Virus record (IMG/VR): IMGVR_UViG_2974791188_000001
Span: 5,603 to 69,602 of that record
DNA: 64,000 nt
Direction: 5' to 3' (one strand)
Source: a virus
Shown: piece by piece, positions 44,702 to 53,725 of the stretch
Layout of the letters: every line of letters starts with the position of its first letter
Position numbering within the stretch: position 1 is the stretch's first letter
Made by a program: the position numbers and the translations under genes
Notes under the pieces: generated by a model
Told to the model about the DNA's origin: nothing
The model's database searches: none
Seen by the model: only the letters and a program-made list of their open reading frames with translations

Positions 44702-45045
44702 AACTGCGTGTTGAGTATGAAATTCCGGAGGATCAGCACGAGCGGGTGCGGTTGCAGGCGAAGCTTTCGGAGCTGGATTCGTTGCTGTCGTGGGTGGAGC
44801 CGTGGAAGCGGACTGTCAGCCTGATTGACGATGATCCGCTACCGGCGTGTGCGACTGAGAAGAAGTCGAGATACCAGCCGGTGTGCGGTAGCTGTCGTGA
44901 GCCGATCCAGGCGACCGAATGGTGGGGCTATCACCAACGCCTGTCCTCATACGTGCATCTCAACGCCCCCTGCTGGCACAACCTGTACGGGGAGGACGTC
45001 AGCGGCCACACGATGATGCTCGGTTCGGGGGGTGTGCCCGCGTGA
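44698..45045 (+). CDS. Cys-containing hypothetical protein
   Basis: 115 aa; TTGA overlap. Confidence 0.4.
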   Translation: MKLRVEYEIPEDQHERVRLQAKLSELDSLLSWVEPWKRTVSLIDDDPLPACATEKKSRYQPVCGSCREPIQATEWWGYHQRLSSYVHLNAPCWHNLYGEDVSGHTMMLGSGGVPA

Positions 45046-45971
45046 CCTTTCTAGTTGCTATGCGGGGGCTTCCCGCGTCAGGCAAGACCACCCGTGCCCG
45101 CGAGATCGCTAAGGAAACCGGGGCTGTCGTTGTCGGCCGCGACTTCGAGCGCTTCCAGATGTTCGGGGAATGGTGGACCGGTAAGAACGAGCATGAGAAT
45201 GCCGTGACGGTTGCGCTTAACGCTAAGGTTCGGGCCTTGCTTAAGGACGATCAATCCGTGATCGTTGATAACACCCACGTTCAGCTTCGCCTCCTCAAAG
45301 CCTGGGCCAAGATTGCGTCCGAATGTGGGGCAACTTTCCACGTCGAGGACGTGAAGACGCCGGTCGAAACCTGCCTGTTCCGCGACATGCAGCGCCAAGC
45401 CAACGGTGAGCGCTGGGTCGGCGAGGACGTCATTAACCGAATGGCTAAGCAAATCAACTGGGGGCAGGTTAAGCCCGTCCCGCCGATCGTGGTCAAGCCG
45501 CTCGAACCGTGGGAAACGCAATGGGATGCACCAGCCGCGATCATCGTCGACATTGACGGCACCCTGGCCCACATGCGGGAAGTCAACGGCACTGTTCGTA
45601 GCCCGTATGACTACAGCCGCGTTCACGAAGATGCCGTAGACCCCGCTATCCGCCAGATGGTCATTGACTATGACGCGATGGACGGAGACGTGATCGTCTG
45701 CTCTGGCCGAGACGATGACTGCCGGGACGTCACCGAAGCATGGCTGTGCGCCCACGGCGTGCCGTTCGATGAGCTGCTGATGCGGCCGAAGGATGCACGG
45801 GACGCTAACGGCAACAAGCTCCCGGACTGGATCGTTAAGTACAACCTGTTCAACGAACACATTCGCGGCCAATACGACGTGGAATATGTGCTCGATGACC
45901 GCAATCAGGTTGTGGACATGTGGCGGGCGCTCGGGCTTAAGTGCCTCCAAGTGCAGCCGGGAGACTTCTGA
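45042..45971 (+). CDS. polynucleotide 5'-kinase / 3'-phosphatase (Pnkp-like)
   Basis: N-terminal P-loop GLPASGKTT kinase; C-terminal HAD phosphatase IIVDIDGTL; GTGA overlap start. Confidence 0.75.
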   Translation: MTFLVAMRGLPASGKTTRAREIAKETGAVVVGRDFERFQMFGEWWTGKNEHENAVTVALNAKVRALLKDDQSVIVDNTHVQLRLLKAWAKIASECGATFHVEDVKTPVETCLFRDMQRQANGERWVGEDVINRMAKQINWGQVKPVPPIVVKPLEPWETQWDAPAAIIVDIDGTLAHMREVNGTVRSPYDYSRVHEDAVDPAIRQMVIDYDAMDGDVIVCSGRDDDCRDVTEAWLCAHGVPFDELLMRPKDARDANGNKLPDWIVKYNLFNEHIRGQYDVEYVLDDRNQVVDMWRALGLKCLQVQPGDF

Positions 45972-46246
45972 TGGCAGACGAACCGAACGTTATCGAACTC
46001 AAGTCGCCTAGCGAGAAGGTCATCACCCTTGTGCATCCCTTCCCGCCTGGTATGGCGGCGCAAGTCCTTGAAGAACTCAAGATCATGCGCGGCGGGTTCG
46101 ACGAAATGATTGGCGACCTCCAAAAGCGTGTCGATCAGATGCGCGCGGCGGGCCTTGTGGAGCCTGCCCCGGTCGCTTACCTCGATGATTACCGGGCACG
46201 TAAGGCCGCTAAGGCGAGTGCTCTTGAACCTAAGGATATTGGTTGA
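45971..46246 (+). CDS. hypothetical protein
   Basis: ATG in TGATG overlap. Confidence 0.45.
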   Translation: MADEPNVIELKSPSEKVITLVHPFPPGMAAQVLEELKIMRGGFDEMIGDLQKRVDQMRAAGLVEPAPVAYLDDYRARKAAKASALEPKDIG

Positions 46247-47541
46247 TTCTCGACGACCCTAAGAACAACAACTATGCCGTGACTGTTGTGCGTGTCCCGG
46301 CTACCTATGATCTGGACGGCTTGGACAACCTGGTGGGTGTCAAGGTGTTCAATTCGCAGATCCTCACTCAGCGTGACGGTGTGGAGCCGGGTGAGTTGCG
46401 CCTGTACTTCCCGGCCGAGGTTCAGATTTCGGCCGAGTATGCCGAGTACAACAGCCTGTACAGCAGCGGCGCGGGCCTTAACCGTGACCCGGAAGCGAAG
46501 GGCTACTTGGCTAAGAACCGACGCGTGCGGGCTATCAAGCTTCGCGGTCACCGTTCGGACGCACTCCTGATGCCGCTCGATTCGCTCAAGTGCTTCACTG
46601 GCCGCTACGACTACCTGCAAGAGGGCGACACGTTCGACGTGATCGAGGGCCACGAGGTTGTCCGCAAGTTCGAGCTACCCCGCAACGAACCGAAGGCCGG
46701 CGCAACTAAGCTCGCTAAGGTTCTTAAGCGGGTAGACAAGGCTCTGTTCCCTGAGCACCTGTCGACCGACAACTTTTTCCGCAACTCGCACCTGCTCGAC
46801 GCGAAGCGTGAGGTTGTCATCACCCAGAAGTTGCACGGCACGAGCATCCGCGTCGGCCGTGTCCCGGTGCGCCGCGAGAAGGGCCGCTGGGAACGTTTCC
46901 TCAACCGCCTGGGCGCTGCCACCCCGGACTTTGCTCACGAGCCGGTATTCGGCTCCCGCAAGGTCATCAAGGAGGCCGACAACAGCCGCCAGAACCACTA
47001 CTACGGTTCGGACATTTGGACCCGTAAGGGTGCTGAGATTGTCGCGGACATTCCGGACGGCTTCATTGTTTACGGCGAGCTGGTCGGTTGGACCGAGGAC
47101 GGTTCTCCGTTGCAGAAGGGCTACACCTACGACGTGCCTAAGGGCCAGTCGGAGCTGTACGTGTATCGGGTTGCACGTATCGACGTGAACCGGACGCTCA
47201 CGGATCTGCCTTGGGACGGTGTTAAGCAGTTCTGCAAGGAACGCGGCTGGAAGCATGTTCCGGAGATTGATCGGATCATTCCGGACTTCTGGGAAGCTTT
47301 GGTCGGCGAGACGATGGTCGAGTTTGTTGAGGACATGATGGACCGCCGCTACACCGAGGCTTACCACAGCCCCATCGACAAGCCGGTCGCGCTGTCGGAC
47401 CCCAAGACTGTCGATGAAGGCGTATGCATCCGTCAGGACGCAATCGCCCCGCTCATCCTCAAGGCTAAGGCCCCGAAGTTCTTGCAGCACGAAACCAAGC
47501 AGCTCGATAAGGGCGAAGTCGACTTGGAGAGCGCGGCCTAG
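46243..47541 (+). CDS. ATP-dependent RNA ligase (Rnl2-like, KxHG motif I)
   Basis: nucleotidyltransferase motif I ITQKLHGTS (cf. T4 Rnl2 KIHGTN); TTGA overlap start. Confidence 0.6.
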   Translation: MILDDPKNNNYAVTVVRVPATYDLDGLDNLVGVKVFNSQILTQRDGVEPGELRLYFPAEVQISAEYAEYNSLYSSGAGLNRDPEAKGYLAKNRRVRAIKLRGHRSDALLMPLDSLKCFTGRYDYLQEGDTFDVIEGHEVVRKFELPRNEPKAGATKLAKVLKRVDKALFPEHLSTDNFFRNSHLLDAKREVVITQKLHGTSIRVGRVPVRREKGRWERFLNRLGAATPDFAHEPVFGSRKVIKEADNSRQNHYYGSDIWTRKGAEIVADIPDGFIVYGELVGWTEDGSPLQKGYTYDVPKGQSELYVYRVARIDVNRTLTDLPWDGVKQFCKERGWKHVPEIDRIIPDFWEALVGETMVEFVEDMMDRRYTEAYHSPIDKPVALSDPKTVDEGVCIRQDAIAPLILKAKAPKFLQHETKQLDKGEVDLESAA

Positions 47542-47732
47542 TGCAGAACGGGCAATCGCAGTGTTACGTGGCGTTCCCCGGCCACCAATTTGACGTGGGA
47601 TCGTTGCGCCTCGCATACGACCAGCTCATTGGCATGGGAGTTCCACGTACCCGAAAGCTGACAATCGAATCCGTGCCCAAGGTGGGCGACGAGAAGTGCG
47701 ACGGGATCGCATTTGTGGAGGTAGTTCCGTGA
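47541..47732 (+). CDS. hypothetical small protein
   Basis: 63 aa. Confidence 0.35.
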   Translation: MQNGQSQCYVAFPGHQFDVGSLRLAYDQLIGMGVPRTRKLTIESVPKVGDEKCDGIAFVEVVP

Positions 47733-48568
47733 CCGTACATCTTTGGGCGCAAAGCCTCGACGACAAAGAGCTACACCCCGTCCACCCATTCCAGTTCCCT
47801 GGCGGCGAATGGCACATCCAACTCGCATTCGACGACCCCAAGCGGTCCTACCAGTGGATCGCAGTCGTCTACGGGGCCAGCGCCGAAGACCTCGTGAAGG
47901 CAAGCCTGCTGGCCGACATTGCGTTGGAACGCGAGGAGCACTCCGTACTGCTCATCCCCTACCTGCCTGCGGCACGGGCAGACCGGGGAGTCCCGCTGGG
48001 ATTGAGTGTGTACGGCGGGATCATTAACGTTGCCTGCTTCGGTGACGTCGTCACCCTGGACGCGCACAACCCGGAAGCTGCCTACCGGGAAGTCAACGGG
48101 CTGGTGAATCTGTCGGCTACCCCGCTGGTCACCGCGACCGTCCAGTACCAGGACACGTTCACCGGGGTCATCGCACCCGACAAGGGGGCCGCGGATCGGG
48201 CAGGAGACGTAGCCCGCGCGCTCGGCGTCGAGCTGGTCGTTGCAGACAAGGCCCGCGACTTCGACACCGGACGGATCACTGGTCTTAGCTGCCCGAAAGT
48301 CGACCCTAAGGGCAACTACCTGGTGGTCGATGACATTTGTGACGGCGGCGGCACCTTCATGGGACTGGCCGAAGCGACCGGCCTGCCGCAAGATCGACTG
48401 TCCCTGTGGGTCACGCACGGCATCTTCTCGGGTAACGCGGCCAACCTGCTCAAGCACTACTACAAGGCTGTTTACACCACCGACTCTCACCCCGGTTCGG
48501 GGCAGCTCGGCATGTGGACGGTCAAAACCCCCACGTGGGCATACATGTTCAGAAAGGTCCAAGCATGA
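47729..48568 (+). CDS. ribose-phosphate pyrophosphokinase (Prs) homolog; candidate Adps of NARP1
   Basis: PRPP-binding loop LVVDDICDGGGT and Prs-like topology; GTGA overlap start. Confidence 0.72.
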   Translation: MTVHLWAQSLDDKELHPVHPFQFPGGEWHIQLAFDDPKRSYQWIAVVYGASAEDLVKASLLADIALEREEHSVLLIPYLPAARADRGVPLGLSVYGGIINVACFGDVVTLDAHNPEAAYREVNGLVNLSATPLVTATVQYQDTFTGVIAPDKGAADRAGDVARALGVELVVADKARDFDTGRITGLSCPKVDPKGNYLVVDDICDGGGTFMGLAEATGLPQDRLSLWVTHGIFSGNAANLLKHYYKAVYTTDSHPGSGQLGMWTVKTPTWAYMFRKVQA

Positions 48569-50043
48569 CCAAGTTCGCACCCATCGCTGCACTGATGCAG
48601 ACCGATGCTTACAAGCTTGACCACCGCAACCAGTACCAGTTGGCCGGCCGCGTTAGCCGTGTCTACTCGAACTACACCAACCGTAAGAGCCGCATCGACG
48701 GGGTCGACCACGTTGTGCACTTCGGGTTGCAGGCGTTCATCCAGAAGAACCTTGTGGAAGCGTTCGAGCCGTTCTTCGCGGCCGACGAGGATCTGGTGTG
48801 CGACCTGTACGAGGAGCGGGTTACGCAGATCCTTGGCCCGAACACGATTGGTTCGGATCACATTCGGGCCTTGCACCGTAAGGGCTACCTGCCGCTTCGG
48901 TTCTCTGCTCTGCCGGAAGGTACGCCGGTTCCGATCCGGGTTCCGTCGTTCGTCGTGGAGAACACCGAGGACGAGTTCTTTTGGCTGACCAACTATGTGG
49001 AGACGGCGCTTAGCGCTGGCGTGTGGCAGGCGTCTACGTCTGCGACGATTGCCCGCGAGTACCGGAAGATCCTCGACCAGGCCGCCGAGGCTACCGGTGG
49101 TGTCCGTGAGGCTGTCGACTTCCAGTGCCACGACTTCTCTTACCGGGGCATGTCGTCTCAGGAGTCGGCGCAGCTTAGCGGCGCTGCCCACCTGCTGTCG
49201 TTCAGCGGCACCGATTCGCTGGTGGCCTTGGACTGGATTGACCGCTACTACGGCGGCGAGTACGTCGCGGGATCAGTTCCAGCCACCGAACACTCGGTGA
49301 TGTGCACCGGCATTGAAGCCGTGGGCGAACAGGAGTTGTTCTCTAAGCTGCTGGACCTGTACCCGACTGGCATCTTCTCGGTGGTGTCTGACACGTTCGA
49401 CCTGTGGACGGTCCTGACCGAGTACCTGCCAGCACTTAAGGACAAGATCCTGGCGCGCGACGGCAAGCTGGTGATCCGCCCGGACTCTGGCGACCCGGAG
49501 AAGATCATTTGCGGAGACCCGGACGCCGAGACGGGGACCGCCGAATGGTTTGGTGTCGTCCGGCTGCTTCGGATGGCGTTTGGTTGCACCTGGAATGAGG
49601 CTGGCTTCCGCGAGTTGAACTCGCATGTAGGGGTCATCTACGGCGACTCCATCACCCTCGAACGCGCTAAGAGCATCACCGCGCGACTCGAATCTATGGG
49701 CTACGCATCCACCAACGTCGTGTTTGGTGTCGGCTCATACACCTACCAGCACAACACCCGCGACACGTTCGGCTCCGCGATGAAAGCCACATGGGCTGAG
49801 GTCGACGGTAAGGGCGTCAACCTGCTTAAGGACCCCATCACTGATGACGGCACGAAGAAGTCGGCTACGGGACGTCTGGCAGTCGTTAACAGCGAGTACG
49901 GCGGAGACCTCAAGCTCATCGAACGGGCAACCCCCGAAGCTGAGCAGTGGAGCCTCCTCAAGCCCATCTGGGAAAACGGACAGTTCGTACAGCGAGTTAC
50001 CTTCGCCGATGTACGGGCAACCCTGGCTAACGCGGGGGCTTGA
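48565..50043 (+). CDS. nicotinamide phosphoribosyltransferase (NAMPT/NadV) homolog; candidate Namat of NARP1
   Basis: TDAYKLDHRNQY...FSYRGMSS...SGTDS NAMPT family signatures; ATGA overlap start. Confidence 0.78.
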   Translation: MTKFAPIAALMQTDAYKLDHRNQYQLAGRVSRVYSNYTNRKSRIDGVDHVVHFGLQAFIQKNLVEAFEPFFAADEDLVCDLYEERVTQILGPNTIGSDHIRALHRKGYLPLRFSALPEGTPVPIRVPSFVVENTEDEFFWLTNYVETALSAGVWQASTSATIAREYRKILDQAAEATGGVREAVDFQCHDFSYRGMSSQESAQLSGAAHLLSFSGTDSLVALDWIDRYYGGEYVAGSVPATEHSVMCTGIEAVGEQELFSKLLDLYPTGIFSVVSDTFDLWTVLTEYLPALKDKILARDGKLVIRPDSGDPEKIICGDPDAETGTAEWFGVVRLLRMAFGCTWNEAGFRELNSHVGVIYGDSITLERAKSITARLESMGYASTNVVFGVGSYTYQHNTRDTFGSAMKATWAEVDGKGVNLLKDPITDDGTKKSATGRLAVVNSEYGGDLKLIERATPEAEQWSLLKPIWENGQFVQRVTFADVRATLANAGA

Positions 50044-50044
50044 G

Positions 50045-50347
50045 TTGGCTGACGGTAGCTGGTGGGCCTTGGAGAATCCGGGCCGATACAGGATCGAATC
50101 ACTCAAGTGCGACGTTGAGGTCGACTGGCCTGCGTACTCATTCGGCTCTCTCGAATCGCCACGGCCCCGGAAGTATCTGACACTAATCGAACTGACTAAC
50201 GGCCGAACCACCACGGTGCTCAAGGCGTACACCGACCCGGACACGGACGAGAGCATTGTGGCGGCTTACGGCAAGGGCCAGCTTAAGGAGCTAAGCGTCT
50301 ACCTCGATGAGAAGCCCGACGCTTTCTCGTGGCGGAAGATCCACTAG
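50045..50347 (+). CDS. hypothetical protein
   Basis: TTG 2 nt after NAMPT stop; ORF open from 49844. Confidence 0.4.
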   Translation: MADGSWWALENPGRYRIESLKCDVEVDWPAYSFGSLESPRPRKYLTLIELTNGRTTTVLKAYTDPDTDESIVAAYGKGQLKELSVYLDEKPDAFSWRKIH

Positions 50348-51227
50348 TTGGGTTACGGAGCTGCCGCACAATACCCCGGCGACACCCGCGTCTGGGTATG
50401 GGACTACACAGGCCCCAAGGGACAACGGGGCCATTGGGAGGACAAAACTGAACACTCGGAAACTAGCTCTCGACAACCTCATAATGCTGGGGGTAGCAGG
50501 CTCCCAGCTCTACGGGACACAGCTTGACGACGGCGACAATGACCAAATGGGGGTGTGCATCGAGCCTCCAAGTCACGTCATCGGGCTAAGCCAATTCGAG
50601 CAATGGCAGTACCACAGTGCAGGCAACGGCGTCAGGTCCGGAAGTGAAGACCTCGACGTCACCGTGTACTCGCTACGGAAGTGGACCCGGCTAGCAGAAC
50701 AGGGCAACCCGACTGTCCTGCTGCTCGGGTTCACCCCCGATGAACTGGTCCTTGAGGACTCGTTCTGGGGTGCGCAACTCCGCTCCAATATGGACATGTT
50801 CATGTCCCGGCAGGCCGGATCGCGGTTCCTCGGCTACCTCGACTCCCAGCGCAAGCAGATGCTAGGGCTTACCGGCCGTAAGCATTCCAACCGCCCGGAG
50901 CTGGTTGAGCAGTACGGCTACGACACCAAGTTTGCCTACCACGCCGTCAGGCTCGGTATGCAGGGTGTGGAGTACCTGACCACCGGGCACATGGAACTGC
51001 CCATGAAGCAGGACTACCGGGACTACCTCATCGACATTCGGCAAGGCCGGGAGTCGAAAGAAGACGTGGTGACGGTCATCAACCTGTACATCGACCTACT
51101 GCGCAAGCTCAAGCATTCGCCGGATCTGCCGCCACGCGCTAACCGGGTGGAGATCGACGCCTGGCTTGAGGTCATGCACGAAACGTTCTGGACGTCGCAG
51201 GGGCGGACACTCGCCAATGTGGCTTGA
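50307..51227 (+). CDS. Pol-beta superfamily nucleotidyltransferase
   Basis: GVAGSQLYGTQLDDGDNDQMGV fits hG[GS]-x10-DxD; helical C-terminal domain. Confidence 0.5.
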   Translation: MRSPTLSRGGRSTSWVTELPHNTPATPASGYGTTQAPRDNGAIGRTKLNTRKLALDNLIMLGVAGSQLYGTQLDDGDNDQMGVCIEPPSHVIGLSQFEQWQYHSAGNGVRSGSEDLDVTVYSLRKWTRLAEQGNPTVLLLGFTPDELVLEDSFWGAQLRSNMDMFMSRQAGSRFLGYLDSQRKQMLGLTGRKHSNRPELVEQYGYDTKFAYHAVRLGMQGVEYLTTGHMELPMKQDYRDYLIDIRQGRESKEDVVTVINLYIDLLRKLKHSPDLPPRANRVEIDAWLEVMHETFWTSQGRTLANVA

Positions 51228-51537: not shown

Positions 51538-51609
51538 TCCCGTATAGCTTAATTGGCAGAGCGTCCGGTTGTTACCCGGATGGTCCAGGTTCGATTCCTG
51601 GTGCGGGAG
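51538..51609 (+). tRNA. tRNA-Asn (GTT)
   Basis: manual cloverleaf: acceptor tcccgta/tgcggga, D-arm gctt-aattggca-gagc, anticodon loop ttGTTac, T-arm ccagg-ttcgatt-cctgg. Confidence 0.75.
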
Positions 51610-51725
51610 CTTAGAGTAGATTGTTTCGGCTCCGTTTCGTAGAACACTCAGACGTCAATCCAAACGGGCAGCACTCGAAATCACTTACCCATGTGGGTGT
51701 CACTGGTTCATTGTTCGGGTGATCT

Positions 51726-51796
51726 GGGGCGATAGTTTAGTGGTAGAACGGCGGTCTCCAAAGCCGCTCGCCGGGGTTCGATTCCTCGTCGCCTCG
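51726..51796 (+). tRNA. tRNA-Trp (CCA)
   Basis: acceptor ggggcga/tcgcctc, anticodon loop ctCCAaa, T-arm cgggg-ttcgatt-cctcg. Confidence 0.75.
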
Positions 51797-51860
51797 CCGC
51801 GCTTGGCTGTGCGCGTAAACAGTCCGCCGCTGCCGACCGGCGTAAAACGGTACGGCTTCC

Positions 51861-51933
51861 GCCTTAGAAACCGAATTGGCTAGGTGCCTGACTTCCAATC
51901 AGGATTTTGCGGGTTCAAGTCCCGTCTAAGGCT
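51861..51933 (+). tRNA. tRNA-Gly (TCC)
   Basis: perfect 7-bp acceptor gccttag/ctaaggc, anticodon loop ctTCCaa, T-arm gcggg-ttcaagt-cccgt; short D-stem. Confidence 0.7.
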
Positions 51934-52036
51934 CAATGGGACGCCAGAGATAAACGCTGGTGCGGTAGAAGCTGACCCGATTCAGAAACCCGCCGATTCC
52001 CGATCACCGATGGCTGCCGGTATATGCAGTTTCTAA

Positions 52037-52112
52037 CTCTCCGTAGCTCAGTTGGTCTTAGAGCAGGGCACTCTTAATGCTCGGGTCGCAGGTTCGAGTC
52101 CTGCCGGGGAGA
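52037..52112 (+). tRNA. tRNA-Lys (CTT)
   Basis: acceptor ctctccg/cggggag, D-arm gctc-agttggtctta-gagc, anticodon loop ctCTTaa, T-arm gcagg-ttcgagt-cctgc. Confidence 0.75.
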
Positions 52113-52150
52113 CGTAGTGGGAGACGGGGGTTCGATTCCCTCCATGCGCG
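52113..52150 (+). pseudogene. tRNA-like 3' fragment (T-arm plus acceptor-like) without a matching 5' half
   Basis: ggggg-ttcgatt-ccctc T-arm-like element 38 nt after tRNA-Lys; no complementary acceptor 5' strand found. Confidence 0.3.
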
Positions 52151-52358
52151 CTGTAGCTTAATGGTAGAGCACCCACGCTTTGCAAATATGTTCCGGATGG
52201 CCCGCTCAAGGGATACGGCGCATAGAGCTAAGAGGTTGTAAGCCCGTAAAGCCCAACCCTTAGTCTCCGCAGGTTCGCCACCGAACTACCTGCGTTATCA
52301 AAACCCACGTGAATTGAGGCCGAAGGGCCGGTGGGCCTTAGTTGGAAGGGTGGACCCA

Positions 52359-52441
52359 GGGCTTGTGGCGGAATTGGCAGACGCGCCGGATTCAAAATCC
52401 GGTACTCATTGAGTGTGTGGGTTCGAGTCCCACTAAGCCCA
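52359..52441 (+). tRNA. tRNA-Leu (CAA)
   Basis: acceptor gggcttg/taagccc, anticodon loop ttCAAaa, long variable arm, T-arm gtggg-ttcgagt-cccac. Confidence 0.75.
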
Positions 52442-52442
52442 C

Positions 52443-52655
52443 ATGGAAAACACTGACATTCACAACCGGTTCGCCTTCCACCCGGCCACCACGGCTGAAA
52501 AGAAGGGTGCCCACGGCAGTATCCGAGAGGCAATGCTGTCGACCGCGCTCTACGTGAACAACAACGTTCCGGACGGCCGCGAAAAGTCTCTGGCTATCAC
52601 CGCCCTGGAAGAGGCTATGTTCTGGGCCAACGCTGCCATCGCACGAGCAGTGTAG
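52443..52655 (+). CDS. hypothetical protein
   Basis: 70 aa, starts 2 nt after tRNA-Leu. Confidence 0.45.
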   Translation: MENTDIHNRFAFHPATTAEKKGAHGSIREAMLSTALYVNNNVPDGREKSLAITALEEAMFWANAAIARAV

Positions 52656-52882
52656 TGGCAATCGTCCTGGGGGTCGGTGACGTCGACAAGATCACCGATC
52701 CCGGCCACCTAGAAGCGCTCAGACGCCTCGAAATGATCGCCGCCTACACAGTGGACGACCACGAGATGGTCGACCTGAACGCTATGGCACTTAGCGGTGC
52801 GTGGGCCACTCCCGCGTACCAACCATCCGAAATTGGCTCCAAGGCTGGAAAGAAGCTTCGGGTCATGTATTCCAAGAAGTAG
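52655..52882 (+). CDS. hypothetical protein
   Basis: 75 aa; GTG in TAGTG overlap. Confidence 0.4.
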   Translation: MAIVLGVGDVDKITDPGHLEALRRLEMIAAYTVDDHEMVDLNAMALSGAWATPAYQPSEIGSKAGKKLRVMYSKK

Positions 52883-52891
52883 GAGAATCCT

Positions 52892-53263
52892 TTGGGTTTC
52901 CGTGATCTGTTTACTCCCCGTACTAAGCGTCAGAAGAAGGCTAAGGGTAAGGGTGAGCAGTTGGGCCGCGCGATCGGCGAACTGACTGTGAGTGCGCAGG
53001 GCTTTACCGAGTCCGTCATCACTCCCCGCGTGGGTGGCAAGCTCCCCATGTCGAACGGCTCCCCGTTGGAGTCTCGTGGCCCGGTTCGGCCGGCTCCTAA
53101 GCCCCGTAGCTACGAAAGCCCCAGCTACTCGGGCTACGACCATTCGCCCGCGATCGCTGCTGCTGCGGTGTCGTCTAGCTACTCGTCGCCTTCGTACAGT
53201 TCGTCGTGTGATTCCAGCTCGTCTAGCTCGTTCTCGTCTGACTGTGGCGGCGGCGGATTCTGA
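52892..53263 (+). CDS. hypothetical protein with Ser-rich low-complexity C-terminus
   Basis: SSYSSPSYSSSCDSSSSSSFSSDCGGGGF. Confidence 0.4.
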   Translation: MGFRDLFTPRTKRQKKAKGKGEQLGRAIGELTVSAQGFTESVITPRVGGKLPMSNGSPLESRGPVRPAPKPRSYESPSYSGYDHSPAIAAAAVSSSYSSPSYSSSCDSSSSSSFSSDCGGGGF

Positions 53264-53436
53264 TGCTTGAGGCCATCATTGCGGGCTTCTTCACCACCCT
53301 ACTAGTGGGGGTATTCGTCGGATTCGTCTACTGGATGCTCAGTCCGCCGTCCTGGGTCGGCGGTGGCGGCACCTACAAGGGGGGGTTTGATCTGAGTTCG
53401 CCGCAAGGCGTCGCCCTGCTGGTGGCCGCGACATGA
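53263..53436 (+). CDS. tiny membrane protein (57 aa), followed by a 33-aa TM micro-ORF 53433..53534
   Basis: hydrophobic helix; ATGA coupling between the two micro-ORFs. Confidence 0.3.
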   Translation: MLEAIIAGFFTTLLVGVFVGFVYWMLSPPSWVGGGGTYKGGFDLSSPQGVALLVAAT

Positions 53437-53576
53437 TAACCACCGTCCTTAGCGGGATCGGCGCTATCGCGCTCCTGTATGTGCTCGGCTACATACTCGT
53501 CGGGGCCTGGTGCCTTTGGAGCCTAGGCCGATGATCTAACGGGTTTGGTCACGTTCCCTCATCTAAACGTGGCTCT

Positions 53577-53658
53577 ACTAGGTGATGCCCCAATGGCGGG
53601 GCAGCGGGCTGTAACCCCGTGGCGTTTTACGCAGGCAGGTTCGATCCCTGTCACCTAG
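53577..53658 (+). tRNA. tRNA-Tyr (GTA)
   Basis: perfect acceptor ctaggtg/cacctag, anticodon stem gcggg/cccgt loop ctGTAac, long variable arm, T-arm gcagg-ttcgatc-cctgt. Confidence 0.7.
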
Positions 53659-53725
53659 ACGTTTCACCTTCTTCTACGGGAGACCAACCTAACTCTGCTC
53701 CGTCAGGGGGAAGGTGACCTACCAC

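Follow-up and report, generated by a model that had tools for sequence, protein, structure and literature searches.

A probable NARP1 gene pair for NAD+ reconstitution in Gordonia phage Octobien14

Introduction

NAD+ reconstitution pathway 1 (NARP1), described in 2024 and found in about 4% of sequenced phages, restores nicotinamide adenine dinucleotide (NAD+) with two enzymes: Adps pyrophosphorylates ADP-ribose (ADPR) to give ADPR-PP, and Namat joins ADPR-PP and nicotinamide to give NAD+ (Osterman et al. 2024, bioRxiv 10.1101/2024.02.11.579819). With it, phages are rescued from the defences SIR2-HerA, DSR1/2, Thoeris and SEFIR (bioRxiv 10.1101/2024.02.11.579819), an effect shown for Bas63, for FADO, and for constructs of SPbetaL1 and ICP1 (bioRxiv 10.1101/2024.02.11.579819; PMC13586617). 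Here we evaluate a candidate NARP1 pair, genes 90 and 91 (products gp90 and gp91), in a 64,000-nucleotide stretch of viral DNA taken from IMG/VR record IMGVR_UViG_2974791188_000001 and belonging to Gordonia phage Octobien14. We call this whole stretch the window and give all positions in its coordinates (window = record positions 5603-69602, such that window position 47500 is record position 53102).

Two structural papers and several extensions make NARP1 a well-characterised family, and its enzymatic activities, with ADPR-PP preferred over phosphoribosyl pyrophosphate, have been shown for the homologues from SPbetaL1, ICP1, P. foliorum and DyoEdafos. Structures of ICP1 Adps place the acceptor residues at R87, H121, D161, D212 and D213 and the catalytic lysine, which lies on the beta-hairpin, at K185, and they show a remodelled pyrophosphate (PP) or donor loop (C215-S220, then F221) together with loss of the C-terminal alpha11-alpha12 regulatory module (PMC13586617). 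Mutants K185A of ICP1 and K162A of SPbetaL1, the latter at the residue mutated by Osterman et al., abolish Adps activity (PMC13586617; bioRxiv 10.1101/2024.02.11.579819). For Namat, the SPbetaL1 crystal structures (PDB 9W5X/9W5W) attribute specificity for ADPR-PP to a "selectivity clamp" that includes a stacking Arg, Lys or Tyr on a loop (R40 in SPbetaL1) and a clamp helix with the signature GS-X-Phi-X-Phi-X-Phi-TRD (PMC12774641). AntiDefenseFinder holds profiles for both Adps and Namat.

Variants of the pathway, and one parallel pathway, are also described. The NARP1 operon of DyoEdafos carries the RyR-domain glycosidase RyDEP (gp78; PF02026) between adps (gp77) and namat (gp79), and purified DyoEdafos Adps and Namat turn RyDEP-generated linear ADPR, with ATP and nicotinamide, into NAD+ (Lopez Rivera et al., bioRxiv 10.64898/2026.05.28.727677). 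NARP1-AP of Vibrio phage Gary adds a Macro-domain phosphatase, Adpp, to the Adps and Namat core, and aRES-type defence makes ADPR-1''-phosphate (bioRxiv 10.64898/2026.01.28.702374). NARP2 of Vibrio phage KVP40, which likewise restores NAD+ in infection, pairs a Nampt (NadV) with an Nmnat (NatV).

Results

Genes 90 and 91 form an overlapping pair homologous to validated NARP1 enzymes

We consider it highly probable, at roughly 0.86, that Octobien14 genes 90 and 91 encode the two enzymes of NARP1, with gp90 as Adps and gp91 as Namat; the catalytic activities of the two proteins and their anti-defence role in Gordonia are what we infer from homology and motifs. The window DNA at 47500-50100 was 100% identical over 2601 bases (megablast) to Octobien14 (MH976515 / NC_060134), a temperate phage with an integrase and a repressor among its 149 genes, and annotated genes 90 and 91 match the coordinates of the Prs-like and Nampt-like open reading frames (ORFs). 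The two genes are co-oriented and closely packed, the GTGA of the adps start overlapping the stop of gene 89 and the ATGA of the namat start overlapping the adps stop by 4 nt, with GGAGG lying 7 nt upstream of the gene 90 GTG start. Both these overlaps and the gene coordinates are exactly as an earlier sequence-only reading had described them, and its placement of the pair in an actinophage was also correct.

The closest tested homologues of the pair are those of DyoEdafos, with gp90 sharing 46% identity with DyoEdafos Adps and gp91 sharing 73.6% with DyoEdafos Namat, both over the full length. Beyond overall identity, the two phages have in common the DDICDGGGTF loop and a deletion in the RF loop of Adps, a histidine at clamp position 7 of Namat, an actinobacterial host and a PNKP gene nearby. 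They differ at the junction of the two genes, where DyoEdafos has RyDEP and the Octobien14 genes overlap, with no RyDEP homologue found. The NARP1 systems of SPbetaL1 (Bacillus), Bas63 (a coliphage) and ICP1 (Vibrio) are more distant (Adps at 26-31% identity, with ICP1 F92 and F223 not kept in gp90 and Tyr rather than His at clamp position 7), but show the same two-gene order and coupling.

The NARP1 call for this pair is already published, since both exact proteins appear in the tables of the discovery paper as a bioinformatic call: Table S1 lists MH976515_00078 (the gp90 sequence) as an Adps homologue, its entry under "Namat within 10 genes" being "Yes", and MH976515_00079 (the gp91 sequence) bears the label "Adps-associated" in Table S2 (bioRxiv 10.1101/2024.02.11.579819). 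In the same work 97% of Adps-clade proteins had an adjacent Namat. We did not find the name Octobien14 in the full-text literature, the phage being present only in supplementary tables.

Current product names for genes 90 and 91 predate NARP1, being "phosphoribosyl pyrophosphate transferase" and "nicotinate ribosyltransferase" in GenBank and "ribose-phosphate pyrophosphokinase" and "nicotinamide phosphoribosyl transferase" in RefSeq. Names of the same pre-NARP1 kind are found in Kudefre, Syleon, Sephiroth, DatBoi, BrutonGaster and mycobacteriophage relatives.

gp90 scores with validated Adps rather than with cellular Prs

Among domain models, gp90 matched phrog_619 at 232 bits (E 1.5e-68) and PF00156 only weakly (27.9 bits). 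It matched 9 NCBIfam models of cellular Prs, each time below the cut-off: TIGR01251 gave the highest score (82.3 against 113 bits), and the other Prs models (NF00xxxx equivalogs) gave 27-68 bits against cut-offs of 296-506; E. coli Prs scored 423-533 bits on the Prs models. Pairwise BLAST was tried as a separator of Adps from Prs and dropped (59 bits for gp90 against E. coli Prs, 52 bits against SPbetaL1 Adps), and because it gave no clean split we adopted instead the difference between phrog_619 and TIGR01251 bit scores. This two-profile difference separates Adps from Prs, and gp90 falls with Adps (Table 1). The sequence-only reading had proposed such a profile comparison as a check and had held that sequence alone cannot separate the two families; that view was too pessimistic, as published motifs and the profile comparison do separate them.

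Table 1. Profile scores (bits) of gp90, validated Adps proteins and E. coli Prs, with pairwise identity to gp90
Protein	TIGR01251	phrog_619	phrog_619 minus TIGR01251	Identity to gp90
Octobien14 gp90	82.3	232	+150	
DyoEdafos Adps (gp77)	81.7	243.4	+162	46%, full length
ICP1 Adps	98.3	287.1	+189	31%
SPbetaL1 Adps	106	247.9	+142	26%
Bas63 Adps	138.5	333	+195	28%
E. coli Prs	422.7	193.3	-229	25%

Residue by residue, gp90 F23, R83, H113, D151, K174 and the loop DDICDGGGTF match ICP1 F18, R87, H121, D161, K185 and D212-F221, with the acceptor aspartates D201 and D202 corresponding to ICP1 D212 and D213. The sequence-only reading had pointed to the motif VVDDICDGGGT as a ribose-phosphate binding loop, and it is indeed present. 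Read as a donor loop, this region is CDGGGT-F in gp90 (204-210), CDGAAS-F in ICP1 Adps and IDTGGT-L in E. coli Prs; with the acceptor Asp pair included it is DDICDGAASF in ICP1, DDMIDTGGTL in E. coli Prs and DDLSSFGGTF in SPbetaL1 Adps. The catalytic lysine of gp90 is shared with SPbetaL1, Bas63 and ICP1 Adps, and its DDICDG-type donor loop with ICP1 and Bas63 Adps. Of the ICP1 adenine contacts and cap, F23, R83 and F210 are kept in gp90, a deletion of four residues takes away F92, and Gly212 stands in place of F223. F92 is also missing in SPbetaL1 Adps and in the active DyoEdafos Adps, so that these contacts are not universal and their partial loss speaks clearly neither for nor against gp90 as an Adps.

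The RF-loop deletion is itself a shared trait, as the actinophage Adps proteins of Octobien14, DatBoi and DyoEdafos all lack the four-residue stretch that holds ICP1 F92 (window 47975-47995, around gp90 R83-G87). With this stretch deleted, adenine recognition in this subclade would differ in detail from the ICP1 structure.

Protein length also sets gp90 apart from cellular Prs, as its 279 residues compare with 315 in E. coli Prs and, judged from length and alignment, it is without the C-terminal stretch that forms the alpha11-alpha12 regulatory and filament module. In a database of 5.8 billion proteins, the best 120 gp90 homologues were 267-367 residues long (nearly all 273-297) and had on record PF00156 only or no Pfam domain, none having a further domain; with few exceptions, those with a named source came from actinophages, mycobacteria or Streptomyces, and many others were metagenome proteins. 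One homologue, part of a prophage in the Mycobacteroides abscessus chromosome, has a Namat homologue after it with a 4-nt overlap. Against PDB sequences, in a copy without the ICP1 Adps structures, gp90 matched only cellular PRPS chains, at E about 1e-10. Taken at the level of motifs and profiles, gp90 is a member of the Adps family, and its predicted reaction is that of a Prs-like ADP-ribose diphosphokinase, ADPR + ATP -> ADPR-PP + AMP.

gp91 carries the Namat selectivity clamp

The second gene had been described as encoding a 492-residue NAMPT/NadV-family enzyme, and gp91 fits this in length and in its matches to PF04095 (E 9.5e-38), phrog_448 (629 bits, E 1.5e-188) and NF006629 (512 bits, cut-off 405). 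As separators of Namat from Nampt, NF006629 and phrog_448 were dropped, KVP40 NadV passing both, and the validated Namats also passing NF006629. Because these generic models do not discriminate, the clamp motif was used in their place, together with pairwise identities and scores against PDB sequences. In the PDB comparison gp91 reached 461.6 bits with the SPbetaL1 Namat entries 9W5X/9W5W, whereas human and Xanthomonas Nampt gave only about 210 bits. Pairwise identity was 47.5% to SPbetaL1 Namat and 30% to KVP40 NadV.

Both the catalytic core of SPbetaL1 Namat and its selectivity clamp are found in gp91. The core is kept as D14, Y16, F191, R194, D217, H243 (within PATEHS), R305 and D307, the SPbetaL1 reference being D13, Y15, F189, R192, D215, the catalytic His, R306 and D308. 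The clamp motif GSYTYQHNTRD fits the published Namat signature, with Tyr at position 3 (Y392) and His at position 7 (H396). At this place the phosphoribosyl pyrophosphate (PRPP)-type Nampts read GGGLLQQLDRD (KVP40) and GGALLQKVDRD (Xanthomonas), and the Nmnat-associated Nampt of Caulobacter phage CcrSC reads GGGMATADMDRD; the clamp motif is missing in all three, and human Nampt is also without an adenine clamp. On the clamp loop, gp91 R43 (in TNRKSRIDGVD) aligns with SPbetaL1 R40, and KVP40 R37 aligns at the same place across a 5-residue gap, such that this position alone is not discriminating. We predict from these features that gp91 is a nicotinamide ADP-ribose transferase, ADPR-PP + nicotinamide -> NAD+ + PPi (pyrophosphate).

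Clamp position 7 varies within the family. It is His in the Namats of Octobien14 (H396, window 49750-49752), DatBoi and DyoEdafos and Tyr in those of SPbetaL1, ICP1, ST11 and two more distant actinophage-like contigs (L022 and L023), making H396 a subclade-specific variant of an adenine-stacking residue. Separately, PDB entries 9KE8 / 9KEO, solved as "nicotinamide phosphoribosyltransferase", matched gp91 at 382 bits, a score intermediate between those of Namat (462) and of cellular Nampt (about 210); their motif, GAQTYQRNTRD, lacks both clamp aromatics, and we found no paper citing them.

Partners of related NAD+ pathways among the genes checked

We looked in Octobien14 for the partners that distinguish the related systems. 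No Nmnat was annotated among the 149 genes, none was matched by Pfam among the 10 large hypothetical proteins scanned, and no G.F.P.H.GH motif of the (H/T)xGH type was present in six frames (regular-expression search); the "nucleotidyl transferase" of the annotation, gene 93, belongs to the RlaP family of RNA-repair enzymes and is no Nmnat. NARP2 was rejected for Octobien14, with no Nmnat among the genes checked: gp91 has the same fold as KVP40 NadV but carries the Namat clamp in place of the PRPP-type motif, and Octobien14 has an Adps. With NARP1-AP the locus shares the core Adps and Namat pair, but a Macro-domain phosphatase of the Adpp kind was seen neither in the operon, nor in flanking genes 89 and 92, nor among the 10 larger hypothetical proteins (Pfam/PHROG). 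For RyDEP, a tblastn search of the complete Octobien14 genome with the DyoEdafos protein returned no match below E = 0.76, and since adps and namat overlap there is no room for an insert between them.

The junction is occupied in some relatives, where it appears as an insertion hot spot. RyDEP is present there in DyoEdafos and two other loci (L010 at 10858, L018 at 10789, L021 at 10819), and unrelated small ORFs of 94 and 62 residues with no Pfam match lie there in the metagenomic viral contigs L022 (10823-11107) and L023 (10942-11130). These small ORFs could be further NARP1 accessory or anti-defence genes.

Genomic neighbourhood and the RNA-repair block

On the + strand the compact block containing the pair runs in the order PNKP, gene 87, RNA ligase, gene 89, adps, namat, gene 92, RlaP, a helix-turn-helix (HTH) gene and tRNAs (Table 2). 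Genes 89 and 92, small ORFs that flank the pair and are translationally coupled to it, had no match in Pfam or PHROG. Their homologues were seen only in the closest relative, Kudefre, at 92% and 64% identity.

Table 2. Features of the NARP1 pair and its surroundings, in window coordinates
Feature	Position	Strand	Description
PNKP (gp86)	45042-45971	+	kinase and HAD phosphatase
RNA ligase	46243-47541	+	
Gene 89	47541-47732	+	63-aa ORF, translationally coupled to adps; module membership uncertain
adps (gene 90, gp90)	47729-48568	+	GTG start, TGA stop, 279 aa, Prs-like
Adps K174, catalytic Lys	48248-48250	+	aligns with ICP1 K185 and SPbetaL1 K162
Adps acceptor Asp pair and PP (donor) loop DDICDGGGTF, residues 201-210	48329-48358	+	equivalent of ICP1 D212-F221
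namat (gene 91, gp91)	48565-50043	+	ATG start, TGA stop, 492 aa, Nampt-like
Namat R43, adenine-stacking residue of selectivity-clamp loop (SCL)	48691-48693	+	equivalent of SPbetaL1 R40
Namat selectivity-clamp helix motif GSYTYQHNTRD, residues 390-400	49732-49764	+	published Namat signature
Gene 92	50045-50347	+	100-aa ORF, starts 2 nt past namat stop; module membership uncertain
RlaP-family nucleotidyltransferase (gene 93)	50307-51227	+	
Six tRNA genes (Asn, Trp, Gly, Lys, Leu, Tyr)	51538-53660		

Between 43000 and 52500 we counted 0 intrinsic-terminator-like sites (6.9 +/- 2.4 in shuffles) and a single promoter-like match, weak and on the minus strand, and this region fits one long co-transcribed early or middle block. 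Within it adps and namat are coupled in translation and seem to be transcribed together with the neighbouring RNA-repair genes.

This arrangement recurs in relatives. Across 19 related phage and prophage loci, many of them close relatives such that the counts are not independent, Namat came in every one directly after Adps or with one small gene between the two. In 17 of the 19 a PNKP homologue lay within about 3 kb, and 13 had an RNA ligase within about 7 kb, both figures being raw linkage counts. The simpler reading of this linkage is that NAD+ reconstitution and tRNA repair are two independent counter-defence modules kept together. A more integrated view, in which actinophage NARP1 belongs to a conserved counter-defence block with PNKP, RNA ligase, RlaP and tRNAs and the HAD phosphatase of PNKP feeds NARP1 by dephosphorylating ADPR derivatives such as ADPR-1''-phosphate, strikes us as quite improbable; there PNKP would play a role like that of Adpp in NARP1-AP, which is speculation, as what the data show is linkage.

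Discussion

Were genes 90 and 91 to act as NARP1, the route in Octobien14 would begin with a host NADase splitting NAD+ into ADPR and nicotinamide. gp90 would then spend ATP to convert ADPR to ADPR-PP, with K174 and the DDICDGGGTF loop placing the beta,gamma-pyrophosphate, and gp91 would replace the pyrophosphate by nicotinamide to yield NAD+ directly, the adenine being held by R43, Y392 and H396. Such a route would need no nicotinamide mononucleotide (NMN) intermediate and no adenylyltransferase.

Several points weigh against this assignment. gp90 is only 26-31% identical to the characterised Adps proteins of ICP1, Bas63 and SPbetaL1, pairwise BLAST ranks E. coli Prs above SPbetaL1 Adps, and two ICP1 adenine-site residues are altered (the F92 contact deleted, the F223 cap a glycine). 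Its placement in the Adps subfamily comes from profile scores and the homologue survey, Table S1 of Osterman et al. having no clade column. In gp91 the clamp has His at position 7, an aromatic residue where the consensus is Tyr or Phe, but the active DyoEdafos Namat has the same residue, which is therefore tolerated. SPbetaL1 Namat also retains PRPP-to-NMN activity in vitro (PMC12774641), and gp91 may accordingly keep some NMN synthesis. Finally, the DyoEdafos support was obtained with a coupled luminescence assay and is published as a preprint (bioRxiv 10.64898/2026.05.28.727677).

Among alternatives, the one that fares best accepts the NARP1 chemistry and assigns it a metabolic benefit, with the pair recycling ADPR from host or phage ADP-ribosylation or from NAD+ turnover and so holding NAD+ at a high level during lysogeny or in actinobacterial hosts that grow slowly and are limited in NAD+. 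Complete NARP1 modules do occur in bacteria, the AntiDefenseFinder authors report an enrichment of NARP1 in bacterial regions that are not mobile and suggest that it has housekeeping roles, cytosolic NAD+ is limited in mycobacteria according to the RyDEP authors (bioRxiv 10.64898/2026.05.28.727677), and Octobien14 is temperate. We nonetheless regard this as unlikely: in every system tested the NARP1 phenotype is rescue from an NAD+-depleting defence, ADPR-PP is seen only with an active defence system, the glycosidase in the DyoEdafos operon acts on a Thoeris signal, and the Octobien14 pair sits among other genes of counter-defence type (RNA repair, tRNAs).

Less probable still is classical salvage, the housekeeping PRPP and NMN synthesis against which the sequence-only reading had set NARP1, in which gp90 would be a PRPP synthetase, gp91 a Nampt, and a host adenylyltransferase would turn NMN into NAD+. 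The product names in GenBank and RefSeq imply such a route, and the pair does share with cellular Prs and Nampt/NadV their folds, the core chemistry of phosphoribosyl transfer and the acceptor-site residues, Prs-type ribose and acceptor residues being kept in gp90. Generic models are blind to the distinction, as the passage of gp91, KVP40 NadV and the validated Namats through NF006629 illustrates, and the residual NMN synthesis of SPbetaL1 Namat points the same way. Yet gp90 fails all the Prs models it matched and behaves as the validated Adps proteins do (TIGR01251 82 bits against 423 for E. coli Prs, with the C-terminal Prs stretch missing and a different donor loop), and the SPbetaL1 Adps homologue gave no Prs-type product (from ribose-5-phosphate and ATP according to the legend of Fig. 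2D of Osterman et al., from PRPP and ATP according to their text). gp91 has an adenine clamp, a feature missing from PRPP-specific Nampts; the searches above revealed no phage Nmnat in Octobien14, although an Nmnat is encoded by 94% of phages that have a KVP40-type Nampt; the two genes stand side by side, an arrangement seldom seen with cellular prs; and the closest tested homologues, those of DyoEdafos, make NAD+ from ADPR. We therefore judge salvage very unlikely. That the pair is a decayed, non-functional remnant, for which one could cite just two substitutions relative to ICP1 and SPbetaL1 (F92 deleted; H396), has a negligible chance given that the two ORFs are undamaged and coupled in translation, no catalytic residue is lost, and the pair is conserved over 19 loci at 39-83% (Adps) and 54-91% (Namat) identity.

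NARP1 therefore remains our preferred assignment, as the sequence-only reading had proposed, with support from the published tables, the DyoEdafos homology, the clamp, the donor loop, K174 and the Nmnat searches. As a discovery it carries little weight, because NARP1 is known, AntiDefenseFinder models exist and the Octobien14 pair is already tabulated. The product names of genes 90 and 91 are outdated and should be Adps and Namat. For the biology of these phages, we predict that Octobien14 and its relatives should stay sensitive to aRES-type defence, because no ADPR-1''-phosphate phosphatase was found among the Octobien14 genes checked, and should resist NAD+ depletion of the Thoeris, DSR and SIR2 types in Gordonia.

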